Part shown: piece after piece, positions 5,578 to 36,505 of the stretch | How the letters are laid out: each line of letters starts with the position of its first letter | Numbering within the stretch: position 1 is the first letter of the stretch | Origin: Curvularia clavata | Taxonomy: Eukaryota | Assembly: GCA_023920165.1 (NCBI GenBank) | Contig: CP089275.1 | Span: forward strand, 5,208,001 to 5,272,000 | Direction of reading: 5' to 3' | Length of the DNA: 64,000 nt | Translations under genes and position numbers: made by a program | The notes under the pieces: model-generated | Database searches by the model: none | Seen by the model: the letters and a program-made list of their open reading frames with translations, nothing else | Told to the model about the DNA's origin: nothing

Positions 5578-8544
5578 TCAAAACGAGGTGTTTTGTATTG
5601 GAAAACCATCTAAATCACTGCCTCCTCCCCACTCTTTTCCCATGGCCCAAGAGTCCTCTGCATCTCCCAACGGCATGAAATCCAGGTTTGTACCTCCTTC
5701 GTTCATGCGCCCGCCACCGAGAGCAGCACTGCTTATAACGTCCTCGAACGCACTCAGCTCAGGGAAATGCGCATTCGCGAGCTGCGATATGGCGTCTTGA
5801 GATTCATAGTCCGTGTTCATCCATGCGCCAGGATGGCGCGCCTGTGATGATGAAGATGCTGCGGCCGAGTGTGTGGAGAGCGTGTGCGAGAGGTCAGGGA
5901 CCCAGGCGTTGGGCTCAGAACGAGGTGTGACGATGATATAGCCATCTGTCTGGCTTTGATCGTCGAAGCGAGGTGGTAATGGCGTCGGAGTTTGAATGGA
6001 GAGACCATGTTGCATCGACGTCCCCTGTCCATGATCTTTCGATAGGCTTAGCGTAGTACCCGTGGTACTTGAACTCATAGTTCGTGTTTTGCGAGCTCCG
6101 CCAGTCCCAGCGCGCGGTCTGGCAGTACTGCTAGAACTCATCTGCCGTTTCTTGGCCCACTGTTGAGTGCCATCGTTCATGTCGCTGTCCATATCGATTG
6201 TGCTCCCTCTACGTGCAGGGACAATACTGGACTGAGGCCTGTAGATATTGAAAGACGTGGAAGAGACTGGGTCGGGGCCGCCGCGTAGTTCCACCATTAC
6301 CGCGCGGAGGACGGTCGACATGCGCTCAGCGGGCTGATAAGTATATGCCATATCTGACAGAGCGGCTGCGAGACATTCAAGATATTGCATGTTGTTTGCG
6401 CGGGAGACGGGATCCTTGATGAAGGCTAAGGCTGCGACGAGAGCAGTCGCTGCGGTGCCCTGAGTTTCTACGTTAGCACTATCATGTGTAGTTTAGGTTT
6501 ATGAAAATGTACGCACAGCATGCTGTATACCCGTGACAAAAATTTGCTTGGTGTCAAATCGTTGTCGATGCTGCCAGTATATCCTCGCCACCCTGATTGC
6601 ATGTTTTGTACAAACTGTTCTACTTAATGCTGAAAAATGATCATCAGGTCCATTTTCATTGTTAACCTGGTCCTCATACATAGCAAACGGGCGATGCAGT
6701 AAGATGAGGCTGGAGTGATATTGCTGGTGAAGCAGGAAGAAACTGAATGGGGCTGTTGCGATATTGTTCGGCGTCCATTGAAGTTGTTCTGGCAATTTAG
6801 TATACCATCTACTGAACTCACGATCTAGCGCTGCCATGCGCATGTACTGATTGCGGTCTACTGCAGAGTGTACATCTGAAGAAACTGCCTGAGAAGAATG
6901 GGGATCCATGTTTTCTGTTATCTTGCCGGCGAGTTCCATTAGGTCCAACAGGGCTTCGTAGATCATAGTTTCCATGCTCTTCTCGGGGCCAGCGGGTCGG
7001 CATGTACCAAGGCGTTCAAATTGTTTAGTTAGATGATATATTTCCAGGTCTGCTGACTTCATGGATGTTGGGCGGCCAAGGAAGAGCGCCCAGTACTTGT
7101 CGTAGATGACACAGGCCCAGAGAGTCATCTGTCGAATCTCAACCTCGCGTTGCGGAAGGCCTGAAAGGCGGGTATCGAGGTGGAGACTAAAGGCCAATGC
7201 TGTTAGTAAATAAGGACCAAGCATACGTGTCAAAGATCGCAGGACATACCCGATGTCAAATGCAAGCCTCACAGCCATTCCGGCGTACATCCAGCCCACG
7301 TTATCACGGCCTACACCGCATTCCAGGTCTCCTAATAAGAGCAATGCGATCACACTCGTTATCCCACCTGGCCTCTCCAGCTCATGATCAAGCATGTACT
7401 TGGCCTCGCGATGCAGAGAGCTTTCCATGCCCGGCATACTAATTCTCTTGATGTCTGGTCTCTCCTTGTTGGCGAAGCGGAATCCCATAGCTAGAACACA
7501 CACATGTAGGAAGCCGGAGTAAAATTGTGTACGACCCATCTCACGATCCTCGTTAAAGGCTTCTTGATGCAGTACGTGAAGCACGGGGTTGTAGAACTGC
7601 CAGAAGAGATTCATCAAGTAGTCGTACGTTTCCAATGGAAGAGAGCGTATGATTCTGTCTGCTCGCCGGGCTTGTTCGTTTGATTCTTGGGCTATGTTTG
7701 AAGGACTCAGAGATTCTGAGTGCACATGACAGTTTGTTGTTGGACCAAAGTAGCGAAGACGTCCATTCAGCTGGTCAAAGGATAGATGGCCACGTGTAGA
7801 GAGTAGTCGATTGACCATGCCGTCTTTCTTTGGCGGAGGTAGCATGGAGGGTGAGCCTACGCTATCTGCATCACCAGTCGATACATAAGGGCTGTTGGTG
7901 TTGAAGTCATGCTGCTCAAACTCTGGATAGTCATCCCGGAGACTGCCTTGGCTTCCTGGACTAGAGTGTTCTTGTTGTATTGTCTTATGCTCCACATTCT
8001 TCTGGTTTGGGGAGGCCGGTTCTTCCTCATTGTTCGGGGCACTGTGCCGTGTTTTGGGCGGATGATTTGCTGGGGGAATTTCCTCGCCTCGCTCCTTTAG
8101 CATAGCCTCTAGCAGAGCTACACGGTCGGTGAGAGAGCACATATATGCTCTTGAGATGGGCCTGCGTAGTTGTGAGCTGTCGCCGCACTCGTCTGACACC
8201 ACACACAAACCTTCTTCGCTCATCGTCGTTCTTGATGATACACTCTACACCAGCTCGTTTGCATTGTGTGCACTCCTTCTCTCCTGGAGGCACCACGCAC
8301 TATAATCTTGTCAGAAAACGCTTCTTGTGTACAAAGACGATGACCATACCCGAATTCGGCGATCTCGGCAAGAAGCACAGGCGATGGACGCCCTGTGGCG
8401 CGGCTTGGTGGACTTCTCCTTTGATGGGACCTTTTCAGGAGTGCTTTGATCGAGCTTGCTGTCCCTTTTTGACTTTGTTTCCTGTGATTCGGATTGCTGC
8501 TTGTTCACGTTGGTTGTATTGGACGATTTAGTTTCTCCAGCCAT
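5578..8544 (-). CDS. Zn(II)2Cys6 transcription factor with fungal-specific TF (Fungal_trans) domain
   Basis: Spliced ACASCRDRRIRCVVPPGEKECTQCKRAGVEC binuclear cluster; GWMYAGMAVRLAFDIG, WACVIYDKYWALFLGRP; several introns. Confidence 0.92.
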
Positions 8545-9945
8545 TACTATCCTTGAGCTTGACCTTAATCTTGTATGCGTTGGATAGTTACTGCAGATCA
8601 GTTTGTAATGGGAATGGTAAGCTTAATGTGAAATGCGACGACTGTCATGGGAAGAATAGGCAGGGCCCACCACGATGGCACACCTCCAGACTAAATCCAA
8701 AATCCGGCCTTTTTCGAAGAACCCAGGTCAAGGCTAGCCCGAAACCTAACCGCCGAGCTGGGGGAGCAGCCCGCCTCCGCCATCTGAAGGCGGGGCCCCG
8801 CAGTTCGACTATACGGACACACGGAGCAGCTTTGCTTGACTAGCTATAGAAGGCGTTCGCGATAAGGAATGCCAGGCCTGTCGTGAAATGACATGCAGCT
8901 AACGACATTCAGTTTCGGCACCACATGCACGTACCGATCCGAGAATGTCGTGGAACAAAGCCAACTGCCAGGCGACCCTGTTTTTGCTGAATGTGGAGAA
9001 TTTCCTTCTCGCAAGACCTTATCTAGCGGGGTCTGTTTTGCAACCTTTCCGTCCTTCGACCATTGAGTTGCACACGCAAGCGATCATTTCTGCCAATCCC
9101 GGAATACTGACGTCGAGGCGCAGCCAGCGAAATATGGCCAAGAGACTGGCAACGCGCGATCGTTTCGAGGCAAGAGTCCCGGGACTTGTGGTGCGTGTGA
9201 CGCGCATTCAGTCCTGGGACCTAGGGTGGTTCTGTCGTCAAGCTTCTTCCAATGACAGCTCACTTCTTCAGTAGCGTTGCGTCTTTGTGGTAGTGCCCCA
9301 GAAATTGCGAGTCGTGTTGAACAATAAGGAGGGTTCATTCTGAGTCAAAAGCATGTCAAGATGAGGGGGAGGGATTTTATGATTGGGCGACGGGTTTTCA
9401 GCTAGTAATCATCGCAACTCCATATGCGTAGAGGCTAGGAAGTCAGCATCCGCAGTCATGCAGGTCCTTCAGGCCAGCCATCATCTCGATGGATGGATGT
9501 GCATTTGGACATGCTTTGCGCACTGAAGCGAGGTGGGCTAGACGGAGCCGTTTCTTTTCGGTTTCGCGTTAAGCCGATCGACTGTGCTAGAGGCCAAAGC
9601 TCTACCATGTCCCGTTGATGGAACTAAGAGAAGGAGAGAAAAAGAAAAGACATTGGTGAAACACCAAAGTTCGTACAGTAGACTGAAGAAGACATTACGC
9701 TAACCTTGCCTCCTGACATCCCTTCATACGTGTAATATACAGCCATTCTCTTCAACAACCTGTAAAACGGAAATATGAAAACAAACTCACCTACAGAAAT
9801 GATACGTAACTGTGACAACTGCCGCTACTTTTAAACGTAAAGTCGTAAGTACTATGAACATACTAAACAAATAACTGGGACGACTACAGCCATATTCAAG
9901 TAGGTCGCTACTCTCTGGTTCCACTAAAAGAGCAATTATTCGACC

Positions 9946-11946
9946 CTAATCCACATCCCACTCATGGTCCCAGTTCCGAATATACGGACTTAGTCCATGC
10001 AGATCTCTGGAAGCTGTCGCTTTGACATCACCATTTCCCAGGTACGCGAATCGGTTCTTATACCTGTAAACATAGTCGTAGTCTTCCCAGCGTGGTGTCT
10101 TGATGGTTTTGAGGAAATGGATTGTCTATGTGTTCGCGTCAGTGATTGCAAATGCAATGCGGGGTAATACGGGGGGATGTGCTACGCTAACACGGGAATG
10201 GAACGGATCCTCGTCAGCCAAAAGAGAGCAACTTACCGCACCAGGCCACAGGTAGATTCTGCCTGTTGTCGACCCATTCTTGAACCAGCTACGACACTCT
10301 TCCTGCCAGACAGTTGTTTTGTGGAACTCATCAAAATGTGCGTAAATTTCGTCCAGTGCTTCTTGCTTGACACTCATCGCCTTGATACCCTCGCATTGCA
10401 TTTTTTTCATGCACTTGATGCTGTATTCGATTGTTGTCTCTATGCTTGGCAAAAGAGTGCCGTTGCTCCACGTTGCACCTGGTCCGACGATGGTGTAATA
10501 ATTGGGGAATCGCGGTGCTGAGACACCCATGTAGAGATTAGGGCCGTTCGTCCAGTCTTCCTTGATAGAGACATTCGAACCATTCCGTACGGTGAATGCA
10601 GGCTGGAAAGCAACCTGGAAGCCGGTGGCACATACGATGGCATCTAGTTTGTGGATCTTGCCGTCGACCGTCTTGATGCCTTCTGGAACTATGCGTTCGA
10701 TGCCATCGAAAACTGGAGTTACATTGTCCTGTGTCAATGCTTCTAAGAAACCGTCTCCTGGAGAGATGCGTCGACAGCCAACAGACCATTTGGGGATTAT
10801 GAATTCCTTCAGTTTCTCATGACCTGGACCCATGCGTCGGTGCATCTCCTTAGTGATGACATCCTTGAATTGGTTTTGCAGCTCCGAGTTTTGCTGATAC
10901 ATACCAAACAAGCTATTAATCTCCGCCTCGATCTTCTTACGAAACTCCAGGTGGTACTCTGGGTCTTCCTTGAACCTTTTGATATCGGCTTCGGTGAATG
11001 TGTACTGTCGCTGACCTGGGTCGATATCTTGACCCTTTTGCAGGTTGTCGGTGAGAGCACCAGCGCCAAATGGTGGGGATATCCATGTTGGACTTCGCAT
11101 GTAAACTTCTAGCTGTAGAAGTAAAGAGGTCGAGTCAGCATTGGTCCCATATACAAAGAAAGCATCAGAACGCACCTTCTTTACTATTTTTTGAAGTGAA
11201 GGCACGATTTGGACACTCGTCGAGCCTAGTCCTATGACGGCGGCGGTGATGTTGTTGAAGTCTACGCTGTGATCCCAACACGCTGAATGGAGAAGCGGGC
11301 CTTTGAAGTCATGAAGCCCCTCAATATCGGGCCATTTCCAGTTGTTTAGAATACCTGAATTCAGTCAGATCTGCTCGATTGGCGATATTAGTGGAAGCTT
11401 ACCTGATCCATTAACCAATACATGTGCCCAGTCCTTTCTCATTGAGCCAGTTTTTGGGTTCCTGATTGTGAGACTGTAGCATCCATCGTCGTCATTCCAA
11501 TTTGCTTCCTCAACCTTGCTATTAAGCTGCATGTACTTTTTGCTCCCGTGCCTCTCAGCAAAGTCTTCAAAGTAGCCCTGGATCTCTTTCCCTGAGGCGA
11601 AAAACGTCGACCAGTCGGGCTTGGGGTCCCATGTGAAATTGTAATCGTGCGAAGGTATATCGCAAGCAACCCCAGGATATGTATTTTCATACCAAGTTCC
11701 GCCAAATTGGGGATTCTTGTCATACAGCGTGAGTTCCCACGACCCTTGCTCCAGCATCTTCTCCATCTTGTACGCTAAACAAAGACCAGAGGCCCCTGCA
11801 CCTATGCATGCTACCCTCAGTTTTGAAGGTCTCGAGTGATATTGATTTAGAATTTTGTATGGGCCATCAACATGTGATGGCGGGTAGTCGTAGTCTTGAC
11901 CTTGGTCATTGACATGCAGTCCGTTCGGCATTCTTGCATCCCCCAT
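9946..11946 (-). CDS. Baeyer-Villiger / flavin-containing monooxygenase 1
   Basis: GAGASG Rossmann motif, GGTWYENTYPGVACD, BVMO fingerprint FKGPLLHSACW, GCRR, ATGF; last exon 10125-9946 ends WDHEWDVD*. Confidence 0.92.
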
Positions 11947-17339: not shown

Positions 17340-18650
17340 ATGTCCAAATCTGCGCTCGTATTTGGTGCTTCTGGCGTAACAGGTCTGTGAAGGCACTGCC
17401 TAGATCTCGCAGAAATACTAACATGCACATTACGATACAGGATGGGCCTTTGTCAATGAAATACTCACCGACTATCCCGCAAAGGGTGTTTGGAAGCGTG
17501 TCCACGCACTCTCCAACCGCCCTATCACCTTATCTCAGGCACAATGGCCAGAAGATCCCCGTTTAAACATGGTCCCGGGTATCGACTTGCTCGCCCATAG
17601 CCAAGAAAGCCTCGAGAAAGAGATGAGTCAAAGGATTCCTGATATCGCCGACGTGACACATGTATACTATGTCGCATACAAAGCAGGCTTGGATGTAAAG
17701 AAAGAGATGGATGAAGCGCTTGAAATGTTCTCAAAGGCTGTGGAAGCTGTTGATAAGCTCTGCCCGGCTTTGGAGTTCATCGTATTACAGATTGGAACTA
17801 AGATATGTTCGTCTTCACCTTCAATTACTTTATGTGGCATAAACTTACTATAGTAGATGGCGTCCACCTTCTCGCCGTCCTCCCATGGTACGATGAAGCT
17901 GCAGCACCTGGTACTACGGCACCTTCTCTCCCTCCAGCTCCACGATCCGAGTCCGAACCGCGCATACCAAGCCCGTTTGCTGAAATGTTGTTCTACCACT
18001 CGCAAATAGACTTCATTACCGAATACGCCAAAGACAAGAGCTGGAGCTTCATTGAGACTCGGCCTGACATAATTGTCGGCTTTGTACCAAATCAAAATTT
18101 CTACTCACTGGGTACATCCTTGGGAATTTTCCTAAGTCTGTGGAAAGAGGTCCACGGAGAAGGGGCCAAATGCCCATTTCCTGGTACAGCCAAAACCTGG
18201 AAAGCTTTGAGTAGTGACAGCAGCAGCGACATGATTGCACGCCAAACGATACATCTCACTCTTTCCCCCTCTACCCCCAAGGGCGCTGCCTACAATGTCT
18301 CAGATTCCAAAACGCCGCAAAATTGGGAAACAAAGTGGCCAGTCGTCTGTTCCTACTTCAACCTCGAGGCCACAGAGCCCCTTTCCGAACCCTTCGACAT
18401 GCGCAAATTCATCAATGATAACATGGACACGTGGTTGGCTATGGAGAAGAAATACGGGCTGCAGAGCGGACATGCTGATGGTGGTCGAGGAATGCAGATA
18501 TCTGAGCATTTGCTAATGACAAGGTTCGATTTTGACAGGCAGCTGGATATGACTAAGTTGTATAGCACGGGGTTCACAGAAGAGAGAGGACCGAAAGAGA
18601 CATGGTGGAAGGTATTTGATAGAATGCGCAAGGCGAAAATCATTCCCTGA
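17340..18650 (+). CDS. PRISE-like (progesterone 5-beta-reductase/iridoid synthase; SirQ-like) extended SDR
   Basis: ALVFGASGVTGW, VTHVYYVAY, LQIGTKIYG (across intron ~17807-17857), FYHSQ, TRPDIIVGFVP, C-terminal MRKAKIIP. Confidence 0.82.
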
Positions 18651-18869: not shown

Positions 18870-20458
18870 TTAGAACGTCATGTTAATCATGATAGTTTTC
18901 GGTTCCGTGAATGCCCTGAGCGCATGGATACCGCACTCCCTACCCAGCCCACTCTCCTTGCTTCCTCCAAATGGCGTGTTCATGAACATCAAGCTCACGC
19001 AGTTAATACCTACCATGCCACTATCAAACTCACTCGCCACTCGCAACGCCCTGTTGATATCTGTTGTAAACACGCCCGCCATGAGTCCGAAATTGGTGTT
19101 GTTAGACAGCGCCATAACCTCCTCTTCCGTCTTAAACGACTTGACGACTGAAACGGGGCCAAAGATCTCTTCGCAATGGAGCTCGGACTTGGGATCTACA
19201 TCTGTAAAGACGGTAGGCTCAATGTAGTATCCCGATGTGCCGACGCGTTTACCGCCCACGGCGAGGGTACCATGACCATTTTGCTGACCACGCTCGATGA
19301 AGCCTTGGACACGGTTGAACTGCGCTTGGTCGACGAGAGGGCCGATGTTCGTTGCCGTCTCATCTGGATCACCGATTTCCTTCACCTTCTCTTTCATGGC
19401 CGCTTTATACTTCTCAAGGAAAGCGTCATAGATGCCCTCTTGGACGTAGACACGACTGGCAGCGAAGCATACCTGTCCCGTATTGGCTGTGATGGCATCG
19501 GCTGTCCATTTCACTGCATTATCTAGATTTGCATCGTCAAAGACGACGGCAGGAGACTTGCCACCGAGCTCAAGAGTGACACGTTTCAGATTTGATTTCG
19601 CAGCCATTTCTTGGATCTTCTTGCCAGTAGAAATAGAGCCAGTGAAACTGACTTTGCGGATGCGCATGTGGCTTGCGATGAGAGCACCTGTGCTTCCGTC
19701 TCCGGAAAGGACTTGGAAGACACCGGGAGGAAAGCCGGCTTCCTTGATGAGGGTTCCGAGAGCGAGAGCCGAGAAAGGTGTCTTTTCAGACGGCTTGAGT
19801 ATGAAGCAGTTTCCTGTTGCGAGAGCTGGTGCGGCTTTCAACCCCATTGTTCCCATTGGGCCATTCCAGGGTACTATGCCAGCCACCGTGCCTAATGGCT
19901 CGTTGCTATATTGTTGTTAGTCTATGGGAGTCGTTTAGTTACCGGGAGATTAGGAGGTTCATCATACCGCACGATCTTGAGAAAGCCATCTTCTTGGGGC
20001 CATGACTCACCACCAAACTTATCGATGAAGCCAGCATTGTACCTAAATGCCTATTGCAAGTCAGAATTCGATCTAGAACCTAAGAAAAGCAAGACTGGAA
20101 AACAACACACCTCGGCACATAGCCCGACCTCGAAGGCGCCAAACGCTGCTGGCGCACCCAAAGACACTCTCGACAATTGTGCAAGCTCATTTGCGTTTTT
20201 GTCAACCAGTTCCGCGAATCGATTCATAATGCCCCGCCGCTGCGCGGAGCTCATCTTTTTCCATGCGGGAAATGCCTTCTCTGCAGCATCTACAGCGGCA
20301 TCGACATCTTGTTCGCCCGCTAATGGCACGTCGTCCGCGATGAGTTCACCATTCTTGGGGTTGTATAATGTAAGCTTCTTGGGTGATTTAGATTCTACGT
20401 ATTCGTTGTTGATGAAAAGCTGCTTGGGAAGGTTTTTGATTGAATACTGAAACGTCAT
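18870..20458 (-). CDS. NAD(P)+-dependent aldehyde dehydrogenase
   Basis: IVPWN, KPSEKTP, FTGS, TLELGGKS, GQVCFA (catalytic Cys), EEIFGPV, PFGGSKESG; two introns ~19909-20108. Confidence 0.95.
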
Positions 20459-21293
20459 ATTGGGCGAGCCACTGTCGGAAGCGAGTTATGTGAAGGACAA
20501 AGTGTTTCAGGGAAGAGCATATTAGCACAATTTATCGGCTTTGGATGTGGATCCCCCATTTTTGAATCGGGATATAGGATATGTACGAGTAGCCTTACCT
20601 ACATGCAAATGTAGTTAGTCTCACTCCTGTCAGCATAAAGCCTACCGATGGCCAGTCACAGCCGAGTAAACACATCGTAATGGTGTGTGACACGGCGTGT
20701 GGAGATGCGCCCTTGGTAACGACATGACGGGTGAAAAGTCGTTCCGGATGATGTGAGACGTTCCCGCGGTTTGTTTTCCGCTGTCGTAGCGACATGAAAT
20801 CACGAGTCATCTCCTCCACCTTCCCCGCACGTTACCGTGTCATGTTACAAGCACCATGCATGAGACTGATACATGCCGAAGCCGCTGAATAAATGAATCG
20901 AACCAATCGTAGAGTCATGCTTAGGCTTCGAGTTGAGAAAGTTCGGGGTTAGAAAGCAACTGTGTCAGTTAGTTTGGGTAGCACAAAGGACATTAACTGC
21001 CCATGACTTGAGAGTAGCTGAGTGCAACAAATCGCCGACGCGGCTTGAAAATGGGCATTTTTGGGCTTCACAGTGCTATTGAAATGGAAGCGGAAGAGAG
21101 TTTCCTCACAGCGATGCGGAGAAAGAATCCAAACTACAAAGATATCTTGGTGATTTTCCAAGAACTTATAGCAGACCGACCTCTCTCCGTATTTTGAAGA
21201 TACTGGCAGGATTGCAATTTTGAGACTATTCAGATATCTCAAGACTTTTATGTCAGTGTTCACAGCTTATTCCAAGATAATAAATTTCTGAGA

Positions 21294-22187
21294 ATGCCTC
21301 GCAAAGTCGCGTTGATTACTGGAGGCGGCTCCGGAATCGGCCTGGCAGTCGCAAAGACTTTGTCACAACGCTCTAGTATCGATTGGACTGTTCACATAGT
21401 CGATTTGAATAAAGAAGCAGGCACAAAAGCAACGTGTGGTCTTCAGAACGCTCATTTTCATCAAGCCGATGTCGGGGACTATTCTTCTCTTGCTTCCACC
21501 TTCGAGGCAGCCTACAACGATGCCGGACGCTTAGATTTTGTTTTCGCAAATGCCGGCATTGTAGAGAGGGATAACTTCTACGCCAAGCATGATTTGAGTG
21601 GCCCACCGCCTCCGCCTCCAAACCAGTTGAGCATCGATCTCAACTACAAAGCCGTGGTCGACACGTCATATCTTGCATTGCATTATTTTCGCAAGGGAAA
21701 GGCGAAACAAGAAAATGAGGAATTGGACCCCGTTTTGGTCATGACGTCCTCGTGTGGAGGCCTGTATCCGAGCGAATTCTGTCCTATGTATAGTGGAAGC
21801 AAGGCTGCTGTTATCCATTTCAATCGCGCAATCACCGTGGCATATCATCACGAAGGCATTCGAACATTTGCCGTATGCCCTGGCATGATCCGAACCGCAT
21901 TGCTGTCTCAAGAGGAATGGCAGTCCTTCGCCCCTGAGCATTTCACTCCAGTGGAGACAGTTTCAGATACTGTCGTGAAATTGGTTGAAGGTGGGGAAAT
22001 GAAAGATGCAAAAGGTGTAACGAAAAGCAAGTATGAGAACTGGGGGTTGACTGTTGAAGTTAACGGGCGGAACTTTTACTTCAGAACTGGCCCGGAGTTC
22101 TGTGACGATGATATGAAGAATATGATGGCAAATACTAGCATGGCCAAGCAGTTGGCAAGGATCGAGGGAGCTTCCAATGGAGCTTAA
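21294..22187 (+). CDS. Short-chain dehydrogenase/reductase (15-hydroxyprostaglandin dehydrogenase-like)
   Basis: TGGGSGIG, acidic residue in IVDLN (NAD preference), FANAG, YSGSK, VCPG; intronless. Confidence 0.9.
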   Translation: MPRKVALITGGGSGIGLAVAKTLSQRSSIDWTVHIVDLNKEAGTKATCGLQNAHFHQADVGDYSSLASTFEAAYNDAGRLDFVFANAGIVERDNFYAKHDLSGPPPPPPNQLSIDLNYKAVVDTSYLALHYFRKGKAKQENEELDPVLVMTSSCGGLYPSEFCPMYSGSKAAVIHFNRAITVAYHHEGIRTFAVCPGMIRTALLSQEEWQSFAPEHFTPVETVSDTVVKLVEGGEMKDAKGVTKSKYENWGLTVEVNGRNFYFRTGPEFCDDDMKNMMANTSMAKQLARIEGASNGA

Positions 22188-22224: not shown

Positions 22225-23171
22225 CTATATCTTTGAATGCCGCCCGCTTGCAAGTCTCATCCCACCGTCTACAGCAATATCTTCGCCATTGATGTACGCT
22301 GCTGCAGGACTACATAAGAACACCATGACGCCGGCGATGTCGGAGGGTTCTCCAAGTCGCTTCCTGGGGTTGCTCTGCTCTAACTCTTCCTGTCCCCCTA
22401 ATATATCAATGAGGCCATTAGCAAGTTTGGAAGGAAAGAAGCCAGGTGCAACAGTGTTTGTAGTAATGTTCCTGGGTCCAAGCTCAACAGCTAATTGTCG
22501 CGACAGATGGTGTGCGGCTGCCTTAGAAACGCTATACATGATCGTTCCGTGCTCGCCAACATGAGGTACTGTCGTCCCAGCGGTGGAAGATACAATGATT
22601 ATACGAGAAGGGGAAATGCGAGTACCAGCGCGCTCGAGAAGAGGTGTGAAGCTGATTTCTATTAGTAGTCGCATCGCGGTTTTCGCTTGTCAATGCACAT
22701 ACAGTCTCGCAAGATTGAACACGCCACGGACATTCAAGTCTAAAACCTTCTGGCTCGACCAATCTGGTGTTGGATCGAATGGACCACCCCAAGTGGCTCC
22801 AGCGTTACATACAAGGATATCTAACTTGTCATCGGTCTCCTGCACTTTCTTCACTAATCTTTCGATATCCTTTGTATCTGCGACATTGGCGGCGATACCG
22901 ACCGCAGTACCAGATACAGGCAATTTGTTGAGCGTTTCGACCGCTTGGTCGATACCTTGCTCTCCTTCATTTTTGCGTGCAGAGATAAAAACTTTTTTTG
23001 CGCCTGCGAGGAGGAAGGCAGTCGCCGCATGTAGTCCGAGTCCCCGGGAGCCTAATAAATTGAATTAAATTTACTCTTGGTTGTGATCTATCAATGAGTC
23101 TCACCTCCTGTTACCAAAGCGACCTTGCCGTCGAGCCTGAACATGCGGTCAAAGTCTTTCAATTCGGACAT
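22225..23171 (-). CDS. Short-chain dehydrogenase/reductase (RhlG/3-oxoacyl reductase-like) with PTS1-like C-terminus SKI
   Basis: MSELKDFDRMFRLDGKVALVTGG/SRGLG (spliced), CNAGATWG, YSVSK, APGFFPSK, VDGG; ends RHSKI*. Confidence 0.9.
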
Positions 23172-23517: not shown

Positions 23518-25319
23518 ATGCCTTTCTCGTCCCCTTTCCCCGCATTGAACATCCCAAAATGCAACCTGATGGATTATCTTTTTCCACCAGGAAAGACACC
23601 ATCTAATATTCCGATTTGGATTGATTCAAAAAATACAGAACGATACCTGACGTCACAATCGTTACTGCAATGGACAAAGAGATTGGCGCTGGGCTTAGAT
23701 CGTATGGGTAGCAAGCCGGGAAGTGTGGTATTAATCTTTACTCCCAACCACGTCTTTGTTCCAGTCGCATACCTTGGGGTGGTGGGATCCAAGCGTATAT
23801 TCAGTGGCTGTAATCCAGCGTACACGCTCTCAGGTATGTATTTGCTGGCAGACATACAACGTGACACGCTAACAGTCTCAAGAAATGGTGCATCAGGTTA
23901 CGAACACTGAAGCCCAGATCATACTTGCACATCCCAGTCTCATAAAAGTTGCAGTGGCGGCAGCGAAGGGCGCCGGTTTACCAGAAGGTAGAGTCTTTCT
24001 TTTCTCCGACGAGCCGTGTGCTCCAGCCGAAGGCTGCAAAGACTGGAGAGAATTTCTTCCTTCACCAGCCGAAGCAAAGCACTACGAGTTTCCAAGGTTA
24101 TCGGAATATGAAGCAACTACAACAACAGCAACAGTTAACTATTCTTCGGGTACTACTGGACTGCCAAAGGGTGTCGAGGTGAGCCATTATAACTTGATTG
24201 CGAATGTGGAGCAAACAATCTTCGTCCGGTACGCGAAAAAGCCTTGGAATGCCGATACACGACCTGAGGAGAGATGGGTTTCCTTCTTACCTTTGTATCA
24301 CGCCTATGGTCAGCTCTATACCATGTCCATTGCGCAAAAGCTCCAGATCCCATGTTACATCATGCAGAAGTTTGAGTACACCGAGTTTCTGCGGGTTATC
24401 CAAGACCACAAGATAACACACCTACAAGTTGCGCCTCCCATTATGGTCATGTTGAGTAAGAGGCCGGAAACTGCAAAATATGATCTCAGCAGCGTCACGG
24501 ATATCTTGTGCGGTGCAGCGCCGCTATCGAAAGAGCTTCAGAATGAGATAACTAGGAAACTAGGGTGCGAGATCATCCAGGGCTGGGGTATGACTGAGGT
24601 CACTTGTGGTGGCTTGCTTGTGCCTGGAGGCACAGTGGATGAGTAAGAATGACTTCGAAGACATTTTGATCGCGACTAACAACCGGTAGTTCAGGTAGTG
24701 CGGGCCAATTGCAGCCAAACTGCGAAAGCAAACTTCTTGATGATGATGGCAAAGAAGTACCAGAAGGTGAGCCAGGTGAGCTCTATATTCGTGGACCAAA
24801 CGTCTTTTTGCGGTACTGGCGCAACCCTGAAGCAACAAAAGAATCCTTGTCGCCCGATGGTTGGTTGAAGACTGGTGACATTGCCATTGTGAAGAATGGA
24901 TGGTTCTGGATCGTGGATCGTAAAAAGGTAACGACAACCCCCAAAAAGCATCAATACAAGTGCTAACACGTTTACAGGAACTTATTAAAGTAAATGCGTT
25001 GCAGGTCGCACCTGCGGAGCTTGAGGCTGTGCTACTTCAGTTTGATCCCATTGCAGATGCAGCCGCAGTAGGCATCACTATTGATGGACAAGAATGGCCC
25101 CGCGCTTATGTGGCACTCAAAGAAGAATACAAGGGCAAGACGACCGCGGAAGATATTCACAAACACATGAAAATGAAGGTCGCGAAGCACAAGCAACTGG
25201 TGGGTGGCATTGTATTCGTAGATGAAGTGCCGAAGTTGCCATCGGGGAAGATTGTGAGAAAACTTGTTAAGCAATGGGCTCAGAGAGACGCAGAAAAGAT
25301 GAGCAAAGCCAGGCTATAG
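23518..25319 (+). CDS. 4-coumarate-CoA ligase-like acyl-CoA synthetase with PTS1 (ARL)
   Basis: YSSGTTGLPKG, LPLYHAYG, QGWGMTE, WLKTGD, DRKKELIK, PKLPSGK; three introns; ends KARL*. Confidence 0.93.
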
Positions 25320-25594: not shown

Positions 25595-26754
25595 TCAAAA
25601 CACGACAACTTGTCTCTTTTCCGCCTTGCCATTCTTCATATCTTCTATCATCTCCGGCAAGTCTTCCAATTTGCGATACTCGACTTCAGGCTGAATGCTA
25701 TGCTTTCCCGTAAATTCGACCGCTTTCTTCATCCTCTGTGGGATACTTGTACTCTCAGCCTTAATTCGGTACCGACCCGTTGTCAAATCAAATGCAGTGA
25801 TAAAATCGAAGCCTTTAGACGCGATTCCAACTACCATGAGCAAACCCCCTGTGCGTAGCAGGTCAGGTGCGCCAGCGTACGCCACGTTTGAACCAGAATA
25901 CACGGCGGCTGCATGGCATCCCTTACCGTCAGTGAGTTTCTTAATGTCTTCGATGTAGTTTGGATCCGTCTTGGAGTTGAAGGTCGCATCCGCGCCGAGT
26001 TTTCTGGCCATTGAAAGTTGAGAGTCGTTTATGTCGAGAGCGATGGTTTTGATGCCCATCTATTACAATCAGATCAATATCCTGCATCTTGCTCTCGCTA
26101 AAAGAATGTAAAAGAAGGAAATTTACAAGATTAGGAGACAAGAACATACCGCTTTGGAATACTGGATAGCATATTGACCCAGTCCCCCACAACCCACAAC
26201 TGCCAACCACATACCTGGTTCTAGCTCACACCCGTCCACACTATGAAACGCAGTAATGCCAGCGCAGAAAAGCGGCGCTGCCCTTTCCATATCGAGAGTC
26301 TCTGGAATCTTGACCGCACTCATCCAGTCTACAACTGCATACTCAGCGAAGAAACCGTCCGATACGAACCCTTGCAACTTCTGGTTCCCCGTCTCGCAGC
26401 GCAAATTATGCACTTGGCAGCCGGAACAGGTGTAACAGCACCCAGTGAAGTAGTTGAAGCCGATTGCATCGCCGATTGCGAATCCATGACCTGAAGCCTC
26501 CGAGCCAAAAGATTCAATATGTCCGACACCTTCGTGGCCAAGGGTTACGGTGTAGTCTGGGCGCAGGCTCATCCCAAGATCGGAATGGCATAACGATGCA
26601 GAGTGAATCTTGACCAAGAACTGATATGGTGCTGGTGTTGGTTTGGGTACATCATTGATGACAACCTTTTGTTTTTTGCTGAAATGTATGTGAGCAACCG
26701 CAGGACTAGTTTGGGTAAGTGATGAACTCACGGATCCCACTGGCCAGCCTTCAT
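25595..26754 (-). CDS. Zinc-dependent medium-chain alcohol dehydrogenase
   Basis: MKAGQWDP first exon; LCHSD, LGHEG, structural Zn CYTCSGC..C, APLFCAG, GCGGLG; two introns. Confidence 0.92.
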
Positions 26755-27013
26755 GTTTACGGTCTGCTTGCCAGTGTTTTGATGGCCGGATGCAACCTGT
26801 TTCTAGTGCTGATATGATGTATCTTCTTGATGCTCACGTATAAGTAAGAAGGTTATGTTCTTTAGTAGACACAACTAACGAACACAGTCGCCAATCAGGA
26901 GAGGGCATATGAACGATACTGCGAGTCATCTCTGCACTTCGGCACGCCACTCACTGACATTGATATGCATAGCCTGACCAAGCGGAAAGACAAGCCCGAT
27001 ATGACCGCTTATT

Positions 27014-27287: not shown

Positions 27288-28406
27288 CTAAGATAGTATG
27301 AAATCCAACCCATTTGCCATCTTCTCGAAGAATTCCTTCCTTGGCTGGTCTAACTTCGATGACGGCCAACCCATAAAGAAGTGTGGATAGCCTTCGAACA
27401 TGTCAAACCGATTGGATACACTGCAACCCGATCAGCAAATTAGTTGAAAAGAAAGGCAACAAGCTTACCCTGCTTCATCGAGCTTCTCCTTCATGAGTAA
27501 AGCATCATCTCTAAGGGTATCGTGGCTTGCCGCGACCATATATACCCGTTTCAAGTCTTTAGTTCTTGGATGCAAAAGTGGCGAGGCGTAATGATCGGTT
27601 GGCGACGCACCGAAGGCATCTGATAGGGAGTCAGTATGCCAAAATCCTGCAAACAAGCTGTCAACCTACCCCAAAAAGCTCGCATTGCTCCTGCCGTGTT
27701 GAGCGTATTCTGGTCGTGTTCCTCCATCGCAGTATATCTGGCCTTCATCTCGTCTGGTACCGCATCCGGATGCACCGTTGGTGGCATAATGCTGAGAATG
27801 CCCACAACTTGGTCACCGAGCCCCTCATCTATAGCCCTCAGCGCGGTTCCAAATGCAATGTGCCCACCGGCAGAGACGCCTGAAGTTATGAATCTGCTTC
27901 CAGCGGTTTTCAGTCGCTGGGAATTATTCAAGGCCCATTTCAAAGCCTCGTAGCATTCGTTCATCAATCCCGGATGCGCGTTTTGGGGTGCAAGTCCGTA
28001 TTCAACGGAGATGACCACAATGTTGCCAGCTTTTGAAATGGCTCTGCTGAAACCGTCGTCCGCATTGATATCACCCATAGCCCAGCCTCCACCATGATAG
28101 TACATGCACACTGGCCTGTCGCCATTGTAGTCAACAGGAGTGTATATACGGACTTTGGTTCCTTTGTCCGTTGTCGTATCTTCTGTTTCAACAGAAGAGT
28201 CAGGCGCTGGGAGGTCGTATTTGGATACCAGCAATTCACCAATATGCGCGAATTGTTGGAGCATGTTTGAGACGGGCGGTGTTAGAGCCATGCGCCCTCC
28301 CCATTCCTCTTCGAACTACATACGTTCGTTACTATAGGTTGTACTTTTTGGTACTCTCTATACGAACCTCTAGCCATGGCTTCGCAAGCTCGTTGTTTGT
28401 CATCAT
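27288..28406 (-). CDS. Alpha/beta-hydrolase, HSL-family esterase/lactonase
   Basis: HGGGW oxyanion motif, GVSAGG nucleophile elbow, HDTLRDD, GYPHFF; three introns; start MMTNNELAKPWLE. Confidence 0.9.
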
Positions 28407-28837: not shown

Positions 28838-30263
28838 ATGGACATAGACGTAAATAGCCACCCAGCGTTCTCTCGCATACCACCATGGGTGAAAGCCAAG
28901 CTGCGCCCTATCGCAATTTCCAAGATACACCAAGTCTACGAATGGGTTGAGAACGAATGCATACCGGCGGAGCGCATATACAAAGCCCAGCTCAAAGGAA
29001 GCGAGACGAGATGGAACACACCAGCCATAATCCATGAACTACGGAAAAAGGCCAAAGCTCAAGGGCTATGGAATTTGTTTCTTCCCAACCACTTCGTCGA
29101 GAGTCCTGGTTTGACGAACCTGGAATATTCGTGTTGTGCAGAGATAATGGGGAGAGTATATTGGGCAGCACAGGTGAATCAACCCTTCTGAACTTCCAGT
29201 CGCCATCTTGAAAGTGCGATATTGATGCAACAAATAGACCATGAACTGCCACGCCCCAGAAACGGGGAACATTGAACTCCTGGCAAAATACTGTACACAG
29301 TCGCAGAAGGAAAGATGGCTTTATCCCTTGATGAACGGCGACATGTCCTCCGCATACAGCATGACCGAGCCTAACGTCGCGTCTTCCGATGCGACTCAAG
29401 TTGGCATCAAAATGGAAATTACGGATAAAGAAGTCATCATCAACGGCCGCAAGCTCTACGGCAACTGCCAGTACAATCCCGAGATGCAACTGTTCATACT
29501 AATGGGGTGCTCTGACCCGACGAACCCGAACCCCTGGAACAGACACACAACGCTTGTGGTGCCAGCCAACAGTCCTGGGCTTCGGCAAATCAGAAACCTG
29601 AGTATAATGGGGTACGACTGGGCGCCTGAGGGACACGGGGAATATGTCTACGAGAACGTGCGCGTGCCGATTGAAAACATCATTCTGGGACCAGGTCGCG
29701 CGTTTGAAATCGCTCAAGGGAGACTGGGACCTGGTCGCATACATCATTGCATGCGGCTAATCGGGCAGGCAGAGCGCGCATTCGAACTCGCGCTTGTGCG
29801 GTGCATGGAGCCGAGGAAGAAGCCACGAGGCAAGTTCATCGGCGAGTTTGATAGCAACATCGAGAGAATTGCTGATATGCGCATGACAATCGATGCAATG
29901 CGACTTGTTGTTCTGAATGCGGCCGATACTATGGATTTGCAGGGTAACAAGGCTGGTAAATATGCGATTGCGCAGAGTAAAATCATGGTACCGAATGCGC
30001 TGCTCAAAGTAATCGATGAAGCCATGCAAATGTATGGCGGCCAGGGATTGACTCAGCATACGCCTTTGCCTGAGATATGGACGTATGCGCGTTTTGTGAG
30101 GGTGGCGGATGGACCTGACTCCGCACATAGACACCAGGTCGGGCGTGATCAGATGAAGACGGCGCAGGGATTCAGGGATAAGGCAAAGGGGTATACGGAG
30201 AGGTACAGAGAATTGTGCAAGAAGTGGGGATTGGAGCCGGAAGAATTCGAGGGAATATTGTAG
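28838..30263 (+). CDS. Acyl-CoA dehydrogenase, ACAD10/ACAD11 (LvaC)-like
   Basis: GLWNLFLP, GLTNLEY, NCHAPETGN, MTEPNVASSDA, AFEIAQGRLGPGRIHHCMR, RVADGPD; one intron ~29173-29237. Confidence 0.9.
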
Positions 30264-33108: not shown

Positions 33109-33960
33109 ATGTCGTTCGCGTTAAAGGGAGTTGCATATATCACTGGCGCGAGTTCAGGTAAGCTAGGAGGTCGTATCACTTATACTGATAATGCTCACAA
33201 CTAACGTTACACAGGTATCGGACAGCACACTGCTTATGCTCTTGCAAGGCAGGGCGTACGCTCACTCGCTTTAGTCGACCGGAACCCATTATCGATGACA
33301 ATAAGCGAATTAAAGAAGATATCGCCTGAGATTTCTATCAAGACATTTGAGCTAGATGTTACCGACGAAAAGGCAGTTGATGATAGTATAGAAAAGACGG
33401 CCAAAGAGTTCGGAAGACTGGACTACGCAGTCAACAATGCGGGAATTGGTGGTATGATCAAAACATCGGACCAAATACCAAAGACCGATTTCGAGAAGAT
33501 TATAGCTGTTAATACAACAGCAGTCTGGCAATGTCAGCGTGCCCAGATTCGACAAATGCTGAGACAGGAAAAATTATCAGACTCGTATCGCTCCTCCCGT
33601 GGATCCATCGTCAATGTTGCCTCCATGTATGGTGTGGTTGCACCGCCGCCCAATGTTCCAGCTACTGCATACGCTACAAGCAAACATGCCGTTGTTGGCC
33701 TTACTAAATCCGATGCGCTTGCATTCGCCCACAAAGGCATCAGGATTAATTCTATTTCTCCTGGTTATGTGTTGACGCCATTGGTCGCGGAAACGATGTC
33801 CGAAGGTGACATGATGGAGAAGGAGAGAATGAAAATTCCAGTTCATCGCTATTCGGAGATGGAAGAGATCGCCGACTGCATAGCATTCTTGCATTCGAAT
33901 GCGGCTAGTTACATGATTGGGGCGAACTTGGTTGCAGATGGCGGATACACAATCACATAG
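33109..33960 (+). CDS. Short-chain dehydrogenase/reductase
   Basis: ITGASS/GIG across intron ~33158-33214, NNAG, YATSK, ISPG, ADGG. Confidence 0.92.
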
Positions 33961-34554
33961 AATGTGGCACAAATGTAGTCATAGACCTTTTAGGATGTGC
34001 ATATTACATCGTTCTTTGCATACACATGCCCCCTGATTTCTGCGCCGATAATGTCTTCTAAAGTCGGGATCATCCCAGACGGAAGTATTGTCTTGGTCCC
34101 AAATGTTTAACCCCACGTTATTCGGGAAATAAAACTCGACGTCACACTCCGGCAAATGTTTAAGACAAGTTGTTTAGAATTCACATGACTCGCCAGCTGG
34201 CTACTGATCTGACCCGGAGGGGCCATTTTTAGGCTGTGTCATGAATCTCTGACCGCGGAAATCGTTTACCACTACTATCGCTGCAAGGGGTCCCTTACAT
34301 GTTCTTCAATATGAGTGGCTAGCACAGTCCGTTACCCCGAATTTGTACATGTCACCAGCATTTCTTCGATTGACTAATCTGACTCATTAATCTTACACAG
34401 TCAATATAAACTGACTCGAATCAAACAGGAAGGTAAGAAGTTTAAGATGCTAAGGCGTAAAAAACGACCTTAAGAAGATGTCCGCCCCTGATCACACTGT
34501 TGGCCACCTCATTTCTCTTTGAATCTCTTTGCATATTTTCATATTGTTCATACG

Positions 34555-36505
34555 ATGGCAGACGGATTCGTGGTTCCATCACAAGCAAACCCACAAGGTG
34601 ACGCTCGACACTGGCTAGAAAGGCCCATTCATGCAGAGCGCCATGTTCGTATCATTTGCGTCGGTGCAGGCGCCTCGGGTCTTCTCATGGCATACAAACT
34701 CCAGAGACATTTCTCCAACTACACTCTTCAAATTTACGAAAAGAATGCTGAGGTGTCTGGCACTTGGTTTGAAAACCGATATCCGGGGTAAGTGGAGGCC
34801 AAGATGCTAAATGCGGGGGATGATACGAGTCTAGCCTCGCTATCAGACTTTACCGACCCTGCCACATCAATACGCCACAATTACTAATTAATTTGCAGAT
34901 GCGCGTGCGATGTTCCTTCCCATAACTATACCTGGTCGTTTGAGCCGAAGCTCGACTGGTCGGCTGTCTACGCTAGTTCCAAAGAGATATTCGCATACTT
35001 CAATAACTTTGCGCGAAAGTACGATCTGCATCAATATGTCAAGACTCGACACCAAGTCATCGGTGCAGAGTGGGACAAGCAAAAGGGCGGTTACCATGTA
35101 AAGGTCAAAGACCTGGAGACTGGTCAGAGCACGGAGGACCATTGTGACATTTTGATAAACGCTTCTGGTATTCTTAATAATTGGCAATGGCCCGCCATAC
35201 CTGGTCTGGACAAATACAAAGGTACATTACTACACACGGCGAACTGGAATGACAACATCGACCTGGCCGGTCGCAATGTTGGTCTTATTGGAAATGGGTC
35301 AGTGCTCTTCCCTCTTAATTCTCAGTGTATACTAACACCGACTTAGTTCTTCTGGTATCCAAGTTCTTCCCGCAATCCAACCATACGTACAGAAAGTAAC
35401 TACCTTCATCCGCGAACCAACATGGGTCTCTCCTGTTCAAGGTCTAGAGCAACACGTCTTTTCCGAAAACGAAAAGCAAACTTTCGCTATGGAGCCTGGT
35501 GCACTGCTCCAATATCGCAAGGACATTGAGCGAGGTCTTAACGGCCAATTCAGCACGTTCCTGAAAAACACCACCACCAACATCGAAACTGAAGCCTACT
35601 TCCGCCAGCAAATGTCCGAAAAACTGAAAAACCCATATCTCGAACAGCGTCTGGTCCCGAATTGGCGTGTCGGCTGTAGAAGGCTAACGCCCGGTGTGGG
35701 TTACCTCGAAGCCCTTGGCAAGCCAAACGTACAGACAGTATATGGCGAGATCAACGAGATCACTGAGCGCGGTTGTCTCTGTGATGACGGGAATGAATAC
35801 CCCGTCGATGTACTCATCTGCGCTACAGGCTTCAACACATCTTTCAAGCCGCGCTTCCCTGTGATTAACTCGTCTGGAGCCAACCTCCAGGATGCCTGGG
35901 CCAAAGAACCCCGCTCCTACTTTGGCCTTGCCGCTCCCGACTTCCCTAACTACCTCATTTTCCTCGGTCCCAACTGTCCCATCGGCAACGGACCTGTGCT
36001 CAGTGGTATTGAAGCTCAGGCTGATTACATGTGCAAACTCATCGACCGCTTCCAAACGCACAATATTTCTTCTTTCGCGCCTAAGACAGAAGCTGTAGAC
36101 GATTTCATCGCGTTCAAGGACGCTTTCATGAAGAAAACCGTGTGGGACGAGCCTTGTCGGTCGTGGTACAAGGGTCTTGGCCCTGATGGTCCTGTCACCG
36201 CTCTTTGGCCTGGCTCAACGCTGCACTATATCGAGGCATTGATGGAGTTGAGACTAGAAGACTGGGATGTGAAGTACAACGGTAATCGTTTCAATTGGCT
36301 TGGTAATGGATACTCGCAGACAGAGGTAGATCCGACGTCTGATTGGGCGTTCTACATAAGAGACGAAGATGATGACGAGCCGATTTCGCGATTGAAGAAG
36401 CTGCGAATCATCAATAAGAGTGGAACGATGAAGCCTAGTGCTGGGGTCAGTTTTACGGGAGTACCAGTGGAGGTCGATGACGCAGCACCAGAGGCGAAGT
36501 TATGA
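34555..36505 (+). CDS. Baeyer-Villiger / flavin-containing monooxygenase 2 with PTS1 (AKL)
   Basis: GAGASG, GTWFENRYPG/CACD, fingerprint YKGTLLHTANW, GNG/SSG, GCRR, ATGF; two introns; ends EAKL*. Confidence 0.93.

Follow-up and report, generated by a model that had tools for sequence, protein, structure and literature searches.

A Baeyer–Villiger monooxygenase gene cluster of Curvularia clavata with a linked Zn2Cys6 regulator, a candidate catabolic unit

Why should a fungus keep a Zn2Cys6 transcription factor (TF) and 11 enzymes together, and what kind of compound would they act upon? The question is raised by a 64,000-nt stretch of the Curvularia clavata genome (assembly GCA_023920165.1, contig CP089275.1, positions 5,208,001 to 5,272,000 of the forward strand; hereafter the window, from whose first letter all coordinates are counted), in which these 12 genes lie within 31 kb. 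A preliminary description had likened them to a ring-opening catabolic pathway for cyclic alcohols or ketones. Our analysis favours, with a probability of roughly 0.6, a catabolic cluster conserved across Pezizomycotina that would carry a ketone by way of an ester or lactone and an acid to an acyl-CoA. Its gene content, the conservation of its linkage, transcription and splicing, the catalytic motifs, the C-terminal ends that resemble peroxisomal targeting signals and the subtype of its acyl-CoA dehydrogenase-like protein were observed here.

Gene content and conserved linkage

The survey covered 184 stop-to-stop open reading frames (ORFs) of at least 90 aa from the whole window, which were translated and scanned against Pfam with weak matches included. 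The G+C content is about 48% across the whole window, and short introns break the reading frames, as in filamentous ascomycetes. All 12 genes lie inside the interval 5578-36505, which is bounded by two stop codons, that of the TF at 5578 and that of the second Baeyer–Villiger monooxygenase (BVMO) gene, BVMO2, at 36505. The gene set originally listed was recovered in full: besides the TF, there are two BVMO-like proteins (BVMO1 and BVMO2), a PRISE-family reductase, three short-chain dehydrogenases/reductases (SDR1, SDR2 and SDR3), a zinc-dependent alcohol dehydrogenase (Zn-ADH), an aldehyde dehydrogenase (ALDH), an esterase, an acyl-CoA ligase and a protein with the acyl-CoA dehydrogenase (ACAD) fold. 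The TF gene adjoins BVMO1, which links the pathway genes physically to their putative regulator. Two statements about the arrangement needed amendment. All the named genes are present, but two unrelated ones inside the interval, which encode a NOD-like receptor (NLR) and a 664-aa ORF, had gone unmentioned; and an arrangement mostly in divergent pairs applies to six of the 11 enzymes (ALDH/SDR1, SDR2/ligase and esterase/ACAD) but not to the remaining five.

Ketosynthase, nonribosomal peptide synthetase (NRPS) condensation and terpene synthase families were found in none of the 184 ORFs of the 64 kb, in agreement with the earlier statement that the window holds no polyketide synthase (PKS), NRPS or terpene synthase. 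This bears on the possibility that the genes form a biosynthetic or tailoring island whose backbone enzyme is encoded elsewhere. BVMOs, SDRs and esterases are common fungal tailoring enzymes, and several BVMO1 relatives carry the name 'sterigmatocystin biosynthesis monooxygenase stcW', which is a database name only. However, the backbone families are likewise not found on a related contig (L001, below), BVMO1 combines 63-81% identity with linkage over three classes, unlike lineage-restricted secondary-metabolite clusters, and a ligase with a peroxisomal targeting signal type 1 (PTS1), together with the ACAD, points towards degradation. We therefore regard a tailoring island as improbable.

The conservation of the cluster can be followed first in L001, a 17,293-nt metagenome contig from another fungus and the single relative obtained when metagenome contigs were scanned with a PRISE exon. 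Its 24 ORFs of 100 aa or more, examined with Pfam and by comparison with the window ORFs, represent nine of the 11 window enzymes and nothing else recognisable, in the order ACAD (-), esterase (+), ADH (+), PRISE (+), ALDH (-), SDR1 (+), SDR2 (-), ligase (+) and BVMO1 (+, cut by the contig end). Identity to the window proteins is 93% for ACAD, 89% for SDR2, 88% for ALDH and 85% for BVMO1, and amounts to 68-73% for ADH, 69-71% for PRISE, about 70% for the ligase, 63% for the esterase and 40-56% for SDR1. Compared with the window, the ADH-esterase-ACAD block of L001 lies inverted on the opposite flank of the PRISE-to-ligase block, and BVMO1 follows the ligase, whereas in the window it precedes PRISE. 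None of the three divergent pairs (ALDH/SDR1, SDR2/ligase and esterase/ACAD) has been broken up. The retention of gene content through such rearrangement argues for a selected cluster rather than passive synteny.

Linkage in named fungal genomes was read from consecutive NCBI locus tags or accessions among the listed matches to BVMO1, PRISE and the TF, always within the same assembly and with the 901-903-aa TF orthologues of Alternaria left out of the counts of TF-BVMO1 adjacency. The TF and BVMO1 are adjacent in seven of nine such comparisons, namely in Curvularia clavata, Setomelanomma holmii, Periconia macrospinosa, Coniosporium apollinis, Vermiconidia calcicola, Saxophila tyrrhenica (Mycosphaerellales) and Polytolypa hystricis (Onygenales, Eurotiomycetes); in Exophiala bonariae they stand eight genes apart. 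PRISE lies at most eight genes from the TF in all six comparable assemblies, being consecutive with it in Paraconiothyrium brasiliense and one Exserohilum assembly and within eight genes in Coniothyrium glycines, Neocucurbitaria cava, Parastagonospora nodorum and Periconia. It also lies at most six genes from BVMO1 in four of four comparisons (Paraphaeosphaeria minitans, Bipolaris sorokiniana, Melanomma pulvis-pyrius and Periconia), so that, combined, it is within eight genes of the TF or BVMO1 in 10 of 10. The gene intervals, 5 in Melanomma and 6 in Periconia, where the TF comes next, agree with the order PRISE-ALDH-SDR1-SDR2-ligase-BVMO1 seen in L001. Contigs of equal size add weaker evidence: the longest contigs that carry the TF, BVMO1 and PRISE are equal-sized in seven species, including an 86.6-kb Periconia scaffold, and those with the TF and BVMO1 are equal-sized in the Leotiomycetes Cadophora (29.5 kb) and Calycina marina (54.1 kb).

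Judged from these locus tags and contigs, the unit is kept in at least the Dothideomycetes and Eurotiomycetes, and on the weaker evidence in the Leotiomycetes. The content of L001 and the TF-BVMO1 adjacency in seven of nine comparisons thus uphold the proposal of an enzyme cluster that lacks a backbone gene and is linked to a Zn2Cys6 regulator; a scatter of orthologues across related genomes, which had been named beforehand as evidence against the proposal, was not found for the TF and nine enzymes. The carriers include major cereal pathogens (Bipolaris, Pyrenophora, Parastagonospora and Exserohilum), saprobes, rock-inhabiting fungi and black yeasts, and so wide a spread over lifestyles suggests that the substrate belongs to a common class and is not a compound peculiar to one host.

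The same comparisons bear on whether the genes are common oxidoreductase genes without a function in common that merely happen to lie together, through chance or ordinary microsynteny. Every one of the families is large and plentiful in fungal genomes, the promoter motif test given below was not significant, and L001 is probably from a fungus of the same order, each of which would be compatible with such a grouping. On the other hand, the gene set stays together in L001 despite a different block order and orientation, the TF-BVMO1 adjacency recurs in a Eurotiomycete and in the Mycosphaerellales, and the NLR that stands between BVMO1 and PRISE in the window was not found at the corresponding place of L001 by ORF comparison and Pfam. 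A fortuitous assemblage is therefore very improbable. From the comparisons of sequence and position we define the core set as the TF, BVMO1, PRISE, ALDH, SDR1, SDR2, the ligase, Zn-ADH, the esterase and the ACAD, while SDR3 and BVMO2 are candidate members only.

The enzymes and the route they could form

Gene models for much of the cluster were drawn from public, transcriptome-like assemblies from a strain closely related to the source of the window; most of their pieces are 95-99% alike to it, and four runs were aligned to 16900-36800. They give 19 joints. Of the 15 examined, 14 are short introns that end in GT..AG or CT..AC, and these 14, seen in runs X8, X12 and X16 (three runs from two studies), all resolve to exact GT..AG. 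Spliced contigs cover seven enzymes, for which the contig introns give complete ORFs: PRISE (17340..18650, +; 400 aa), ALDH (18870..20458, -; 488 aa), the ligase (23518..25319, +; 551 aa), the esterase (27288..28406, -; 322 aa), the ACAD (28838..30263, +; 453 aa), SDR3 (33109..33960, +; 264 aa) and BVMO2 (34555..36505, +; 596 aa). For the 664-aa ORF the covering contig is unspliced, which brings the genes with contig cover in these runs to eight. These transcript contigs carry no expression levels, and genes cannot be ranked by them; the lack of contig cover for SDR1 and the low cover of ADH were set aside as no evidence about expression.

BVMO1 (9946..11946, -) was modelled by tblastn on a 593-aa Setomelanomma homologue as a type I enzyme of 592 aa with three in-frame introns (11355-11402, 11109-11171 and 10126-10236). 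Type I BVMOs are recognised by the Rossmann motif GxGxxG, the long motif [AG]GxWxxxx[FY]P[GM]xxxD and the fingerprint FxGxxxHxxxW[PD], and BVMO1 has all three, as GAGASG, GGTWYENTYPGVACD and FKGPLLHSACWD. Among solved structures it matches PAMO and CHMO, at E 4.5e-28, and also OTEMO. BVMO2 is a BVMO-like protein by PF13450 and PF00743, with an E-value of 1.9e-28 against solved BVMOs; in an exhaustive protein search its nearest representatives of 50%-identity clusters, from Colletotrichum cereale and Diplodia seriata, are 52-62% identical. The solved type I BVMOs (PAMO, CHMO, OTEMO, steroid monooxygenase and Aspergillus flavus 5J7X) share fold and motifs with BVMO1, but they are distant from the window proteins: both BVMO1 and BVMO2 match PAMO, CHMO, OTEMO and steroid monooxygenase at E values of about 1e-28, mostly in the C-terminal half, so that no substrate class can be transferred from them. 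Among 11 fungi fed apocarotenoids, Curvularia lunata was reported to yield the sole Baeyer–Villiger product, an acetate derived in this way from an ionone-type compound (PMC6337586). That report shows, in a congener, that Baeyer–Villiger activity exists in the genus, and it does not tie the activity to the present cluster.

The reductase encoded next to the ALDH is an extended SDR of the PRISE family, matching PF22917 at E 1e-90 and 4e-45 (305 and 155 bits, the cut-off being 27). Members of this family are expected to show catalytic Lys and Tyr motifs, and GTKIYG and FYHSQID are present, so that we annotate it as a putative enone C=C reductase. Its nearest solved relatives are plant progesterone 5beta-reductases (E 1e-10), which raises the possibility that the cluster serves steroid, in particular pregnane, side-chain cleavage, with PRISE as a steroid enone reductase and the BVMO, esterase and a hydroxysteroid-type SDR cleaving a methyl-ketone side chain, after which the pieces would undergo oxidation. 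A steroid monooxygenase is also found among the BVMO matches, and a fungal pregnane side-chain cleavage that includes a BVMO has been published (PMC5943271). However, the PRISE match is weak and the family is described as promiscuous on 1,4-enones (PMC11643720), the top BVMO match is not the steroid monooxygenase, and the ligase and ACAD11-type enzyme would have no role in side-chain cleavage. A steroid substrate is thus unlikely to explain the set. The VEP1/PRISE family is patchy in fungi according to a paper on its evolution. Among the matches listed, the relatives of the window protein form two groups, one of about 400 aa with 69-79% identity in the Pleosporaceae and another of 388-391 aa with about 60% identity elsewhere; some species, among them Dendryphion nanum and Paraphoma chrysanthemicola, carry two copies on separate scaffolds.

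The remaining enzymes can be assigned to classes with some assurance. The ALDH matches PF00171 at E 5.6e-130 and has the motifs ELGGK and GQVC. SDR1 (21294..22187, +) is a classical SDR of 297 aa (PF00106, E 3e-30) whose nearest solved structure is 15-hydroxyprostaglandin dehydrogenase, SDR2 (22225..23171, -) is FabG-like, with PF13561 and PF00106 on two exons, and SDR3 is another classical SDR (PF13561, E 1e-52). The ligase, with PF00501, PF13193, the usual motifs and matching PDB entries, is of the 4-coumarate-CoA ligase/luciferase class. Zn-ADH (about 25595..26833, -; start codon and short first exon not placed) carries PF08240 and PF00107 and resembles, among PDB entries, yeast and Bacillus ADHs of the ADH1 type and secondary ADHs. 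Family IV esterases are marked by an HGGG oxyanion motif, a GxSxG nucleophile, an acid and a His; the window esterase, a member of the hormone-sensitive-lipase family (Abhydrolase_3, PF07859, E 3e-30), has HGGG, GVSAG and DTLRD, its solved relatives are family IV esterases, and its sequence fits a lactonase and an esterase alike. With regard to location, the PTS1 consensus is a C-terminal [SAC][KRH][LM]; the ligase ends in -ARL (its L001 orthologue in -AKL) and BVMO2 in -AKL, and a PTS1-like end is found in none of the other seven modelled enzymes.

The most informative of the enzymes is the ACAD, which the preliminary description had treated as a generic beta-oxidation dehydrogenase. This assignment did not hold. 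The protein has the ACAD fold by Pfam, lacks a kinase domain, and matches human and mouse ACAD11 and the mycobacterial entry 4hr3 at E 1e-72 to 1e-81, against 1e-24 for the medium-chain enzyme MCAD. A helix with Arg626, His634 and Arg637, combined with a catalytic Asp where Glu is usual elsewhere, is reported to be uniquely common to ACAD10, ACAD11 and LvaC (PMC12440821). All four signature residues are kept in the window protein, in which GRLGPGRIHHCMR and ADGPD align to mouse ACAD11, and its catalytic Asp occupies the position that is Asn in entry 8v3v, an inactive mutant. The E-values and the signature residues thus both mark it as ACAD10/11/LvaC-type. Beta-oxidation takes ricinoleic acid to a 4-hydroxyacyl-CoA. 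ACAD11-like mutants of Rhodotorula toruloides were reported to fail on this acid (PMC5922974). The reported chemistry of ACAD10, ACAD11 and LvaC is the elimination of phosphate from a 4-phosphoacyl-CoA to give a 2-enoyl-CoA, after the action of a kinase that is either a fused domain or the separate protein LvaA (PMC12440821, PMC11342911).

By Pfam and motifs, the enzyme classes match the route of the preliminary description, from ketone through Baeyer–Villiger oxidation, hydrolysis and ADH/ALDH oxidation to a CoA ester. The reactions, their order, the targets of the regulator and the substrate are inferred. First, an SDR would oxidise a secondary alcohol and/or PRISE would saturate an enone, to give a saturated ketone. 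Second, a BVMO would insert oxygen, which would yield an ester from a chain ketone or a lactone from a ring ketone. Third, the family IV esterase would hydrolyse this product to an alcohol and an acid, or to a hydroxy acid, and Zn-ADH and ALDH could then oxidise the released alcohol to an acid. The ligase, with its PTS1-like end, would form the CoA ester in the peroxisome. Finally, the ACAD10/11/LvaC-type enzyme would remove a 4-position oxygen function that blocks beta-oxidation and release a 2-enoyl-CoA, with SDR2 perhaps acting beforehand on the 4-oxo or 4-hydroxy group in the manner of LvaD. An epsilon-lactone, for example, would give a 6-hydroxy acid and, after one round of beta-oxidation, a 4-hydroxyacyl-CoA, which would explain why an LvaC-type enzyme is found in a ring-opening cluster. 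In a variant for chain methyl enones, enone reduction would be followed by Baeyer–Villiger oxidation to the acetate of a primary alcohol, hydrolysis, and oxidation by ADH and ALDH. Chain methyl ketones or enones fit the gene set as well as cyclic ketones do. The BVMO sequences do not separate lactone-forming from ester-forming enzymes.

Several observations weigh against this route or against the extent of the cluster. A kinase of the LvaA/APH type was not found by Pfam among the 184 window ORFs or the 24 ORFs of L001, which would leave the LvaC-type chemistry without its usual partner here, and the cluster contains none of a transporter, a hydratase or a thiolase. BVMO2 has Rossmann motifs but departs from both BVMO consensus motifs: its long motif begins with S rather than A or G and so fails the strict pattern, and its fingerprint is YKGTLLHTANWN, with Y for F and N for P/D. 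Both BVMO2 and SDR3 are missing from L001 because the contig ends, as the TF likewise lies beyond its reach, and an exhaustive protein search yielded no positional information on their linkage. The cluster is also interrupted by the NLR and by the unrelated 664-aa ORF. In Oleoguttula CCFEE 5521, the TF and BVMO1 matches (LTR95_011266 and LTR95_005246) are not adjacent and lie on different short contigs; the TF-like match there, at 53% identity, may be a paralogue. As regards co-regulation, sharing of an 8-mer by four of the nine cluster promoters is reached in 80 of 200 shuffles, and this enrichment is not significant. Lastly, the nearest solved structures of the esterase, ligase, ADH, SDR1, SDR3, the BVMOs and PRISE give class only and not substrate.

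The properties of the ACAD also suggest a different emphasis, in which the cluster would be a pathway for lactones and hydroxy or oxo acids resembling the one encoded by the Pseudomonas putida lva operon: the esterase would hydrolyse, the ligase activate, the SDRs adjust the redox state and the ACAD feed beta-oxidation. The substrates would be lactones or 4-, 5- or 6-hydroxy or oxo fatty acids, among them plant or fungal oxylipins, hydroxy fatty acids, lactone volatiles and levulinate-type acids, and the BVMOs and PRISE would be side branches. The conserved signature residues favour such a pathway; the catalytic Asp and the Arg/His/Arg helix are shared between the window protein, the lva operon and mammalian ACAD10 and ACAD11 (PMC12440821). 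In the lva operon LvaC is accompanied by LvaE and LvaD, and the window likewise has a CoA ligase and an SDR, a trio reported for the bacterium (PMC12440821, PMC11342911). It is further in line with this that ACAD (93%) and SDR2 (89%) are the most conserved proteins compared with L001, that fungal ACAD11-like genes are reportedly required for growth on ricinoleic acid (PMC5922974), and that the broad spread over lifestyles favours a common, lipid-like substrate. However, the window differs from the lva and ACAD10/11 systems in that no LvaA/APH kinase domain or gene was found in it or in L001 by Pfam, and in that BVMO, esterase, ADH, ALDH and PRISE genes are added. A plain lva route would have no need of a Zn-ADH and ALDH pair, and no gene is linked to the regulator more tightly than BVMO1 (adjacent in seven of nine comparisons), which argues that the Baeyer–Villiger step is central. 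We hold an lva-like pathway to be possible, though distinctly on the unlikely side.

The preferred reading, with ketone cleavage at its centre, can be extended to an ancient peroxisomal route, common to the Pezizomycotina, in which a single conserved Zn2Cys6 regulator would govern both Baeyer–Villiger cleavage and the removal of a 4-position oxygen by LvaC/ACAD11-type chemistry, and whose substrates would be widespread plant or microbial ketones that act as signals or volatiles, such as apocarotenoid enones (ionones), jasmonate-type cyclopentanones or mid-chain wax ketones. We offer this extension tentatively and with low confidence. If it were true, the cluster would be a fungal system that consumes signalling compounds of a host or neighbour, and ACAD11-type chemistry could run with a kinase encoded elsewhere or with none. 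In any case, the cluster places a standalone fungal ACAD11/LvaC-type enzyme in a genomic context for the first time, and it provides a module of regulator and pathway with which to ask which ketone, lactone or hydroxy acid these fungi eat, and a co-evolved set of BVMO, esterase and enone reductase that is of interest for biocatalysis.

Relation to known catabolic clusters

Catabolic clusters centred on a BVMO are well known in bacteria, and very few fungal clusters built around a Baeyer–Villiger step have been described; the window cluster is not a surprise in principle. The enzyme classes of Acinetobacter chnA-E (SDR, BVMO, hydrolase, ADH and ALDH) correspond to classes found in the window. 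With the CHMOs, BVMO1 and BVMO2 share similarity in their C-terminal halves only (E 1e-22 to 1e-28), and the window adds PRISE, the ligase, the ACAD11-type enzyme and the Zn2Cys6 regulator to the chn set. The order proposed here is also that described for Rhodococcus erythropolis DCL14, in which carveol dehydrogenase, carvone reductase, a BVMO and an epsilon-lactone hydrolase are followed by oxidation of the hydroxy acid, CoA activation and beta-oxidation (PMC4097962). This bacterial pathway is likened to the window by enzyme types, not by sequences. Its carvone reductase is not known to be a PRISE enzyme.

The closest fungal parallel is a terpene-induced cluster of about 30 genes in Grosmannia clavigera, two BVMOs of which (CMQ_6956 and CMQ_7007) are reported to be needed on limonene and whose acyl-CoA ligase CMQ_6959 showed 1107-fold induction on monoterpenes (PMC3680317, PMC8120277, PMC4368105). 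As described in the same reports, it is backbone-less like the window cluster, with BVMOs listed as peroxisomal, a ligase, dehydrogenases and genes of beta-oxidation type, and serves growth on precursors of cyclic plant ketones. The two are compared here by enzyme content, and Grosmannia proteins are not among the best 120 matches each for BVMO1, PRISE and the TF. They also differ in distribution, in that the G. clavigera cluster was reported to be absent from the related Ophiostoma piceae, whereas the window cluster is widely conserved. A review states that the sole fungal enzymes characterised in terpenoid detoxification come from one species (PMC8120277). The G. clavigera cluster means that the preliminary remark that no described fungal cluster of this composition was known needs qualification: the general kind is known, while full-text searching of the literature found no description or functional account of the conserved unit of TF, BVMO, PRISE and ACAD11-type enzyme.

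Regulator, promoter words and neighbouring genes

The TF (5578..8544, -) is a Zn2Cys6/Fungal_trans protein of about 900-940 aa (PF04082, E 2.9e-18), whose top match in the protein search is from Curvularia clavata, at 97% identity. An intron divides its zinc-cluster motif, CX2CX6C|X8CX2CX6C, and this explains why only Fungal_trans was reported by Pfam; a further in-frame intron within the Fungal_trans domain is visible against the Alternaria orthologue. The Alternaria proteins of 901-903 aa were considered as TF-BVMO fusions and rejected, since they are plain TF orthologues with 80% identity to the TF and none to BVMO1. They nevertheless sit in the 90%-identity protein cluster of BVMO1 despite sharing no similarity with it, and a chimeric gene model that bridges adjacent TF and BVMO1 genes may be present in the protein collection.

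In the divergent promoter of ALDH and SDR1, two candidate cis-elements, ATGACTCG and CCACCTTCCCCGCACG, occur at 20803..20828. Further copies of the 8-mer lie at 26922-26929, 28712-28719 and 34185-34192, so that all four of its occurrences in the window are in cluster promoters, and a copy of the second element lies at 27032-27041; the GCGGGG core of the second word resembles a CreA-type site. Words like CCTTCCCCGC recur, and the candidate elements can be written as CCACCTTCCCCGC and CGAGTCATG. On L001 copies of the promoter words are found at 2367-2374, 2431-2440, 4142-4149 and 9838-9847, and ATGACTCG stands side by side with (CC)ACCTTCCCCGC in the ALDH/SDR1 promoter of both the window and L001. 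Words of 18 (ALDH/SDR1), 10 (esterase/ACAD) and 11 nt (before PRISE) are collinear between the two, while 13-47 of 100 shuffles also give some 10-mer, and the window-wide word counts do not exceed chance (18 and 28 of 100 shuffles reach them). The promoter words are therefore to be taken as leads only, slightly strengthened by the collinearity with L001.

With regard to the two intervening genes, the NLR (13325-16446, +), which lies between BVMO1 and PRISE, has an NPHP3_N/NACHT domain and at least five ankyrin repeats. Its frame carries an in-frame TAG (15352-15354) with no plausible intron around it, which indicates a pseudogene or a gene split in two. The 664-aa ORF (30498-32492, -) separates the conserved core from SDR3 and BVMO2. 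It is expressed, unspliced, of low complexity and mostly disordered, with a weak Pif1 2B-like stretch but without the helicase core, and its Atlas family consists of 73 hypothetical proteins of Ascomycota; it was rejected as a pathway enzyme because it belongs to no enzyme family and is mostly disordered.

On the left flank, a nicotianamine synthase-like gene with two exons (992-2001, +) adjoins the C-terminal end of an amidohydrolase (2-487, +). The right flank contains an intradiol dioxygenase-like gene (41508-42764, -), a gene of the Bax-inhibitor-1 family (46987-48075, -), a sugar-type transporter of the major facilitator superfamily (54176-55921, +) and a cyclic nucleotide-binding F-box protein (62035-63999, -), as well as four ORFs of 250-400 aa outside any Pfam family (38987-40210, -; 45326-46492, +; 49389-50144, +; 50817-51995, +). 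A second NLR, a single ORF of 1153 aa at 56680-60138 (+), combines HeLo (prion-inhibition/propagation), NACHT and DUF7791 domains.

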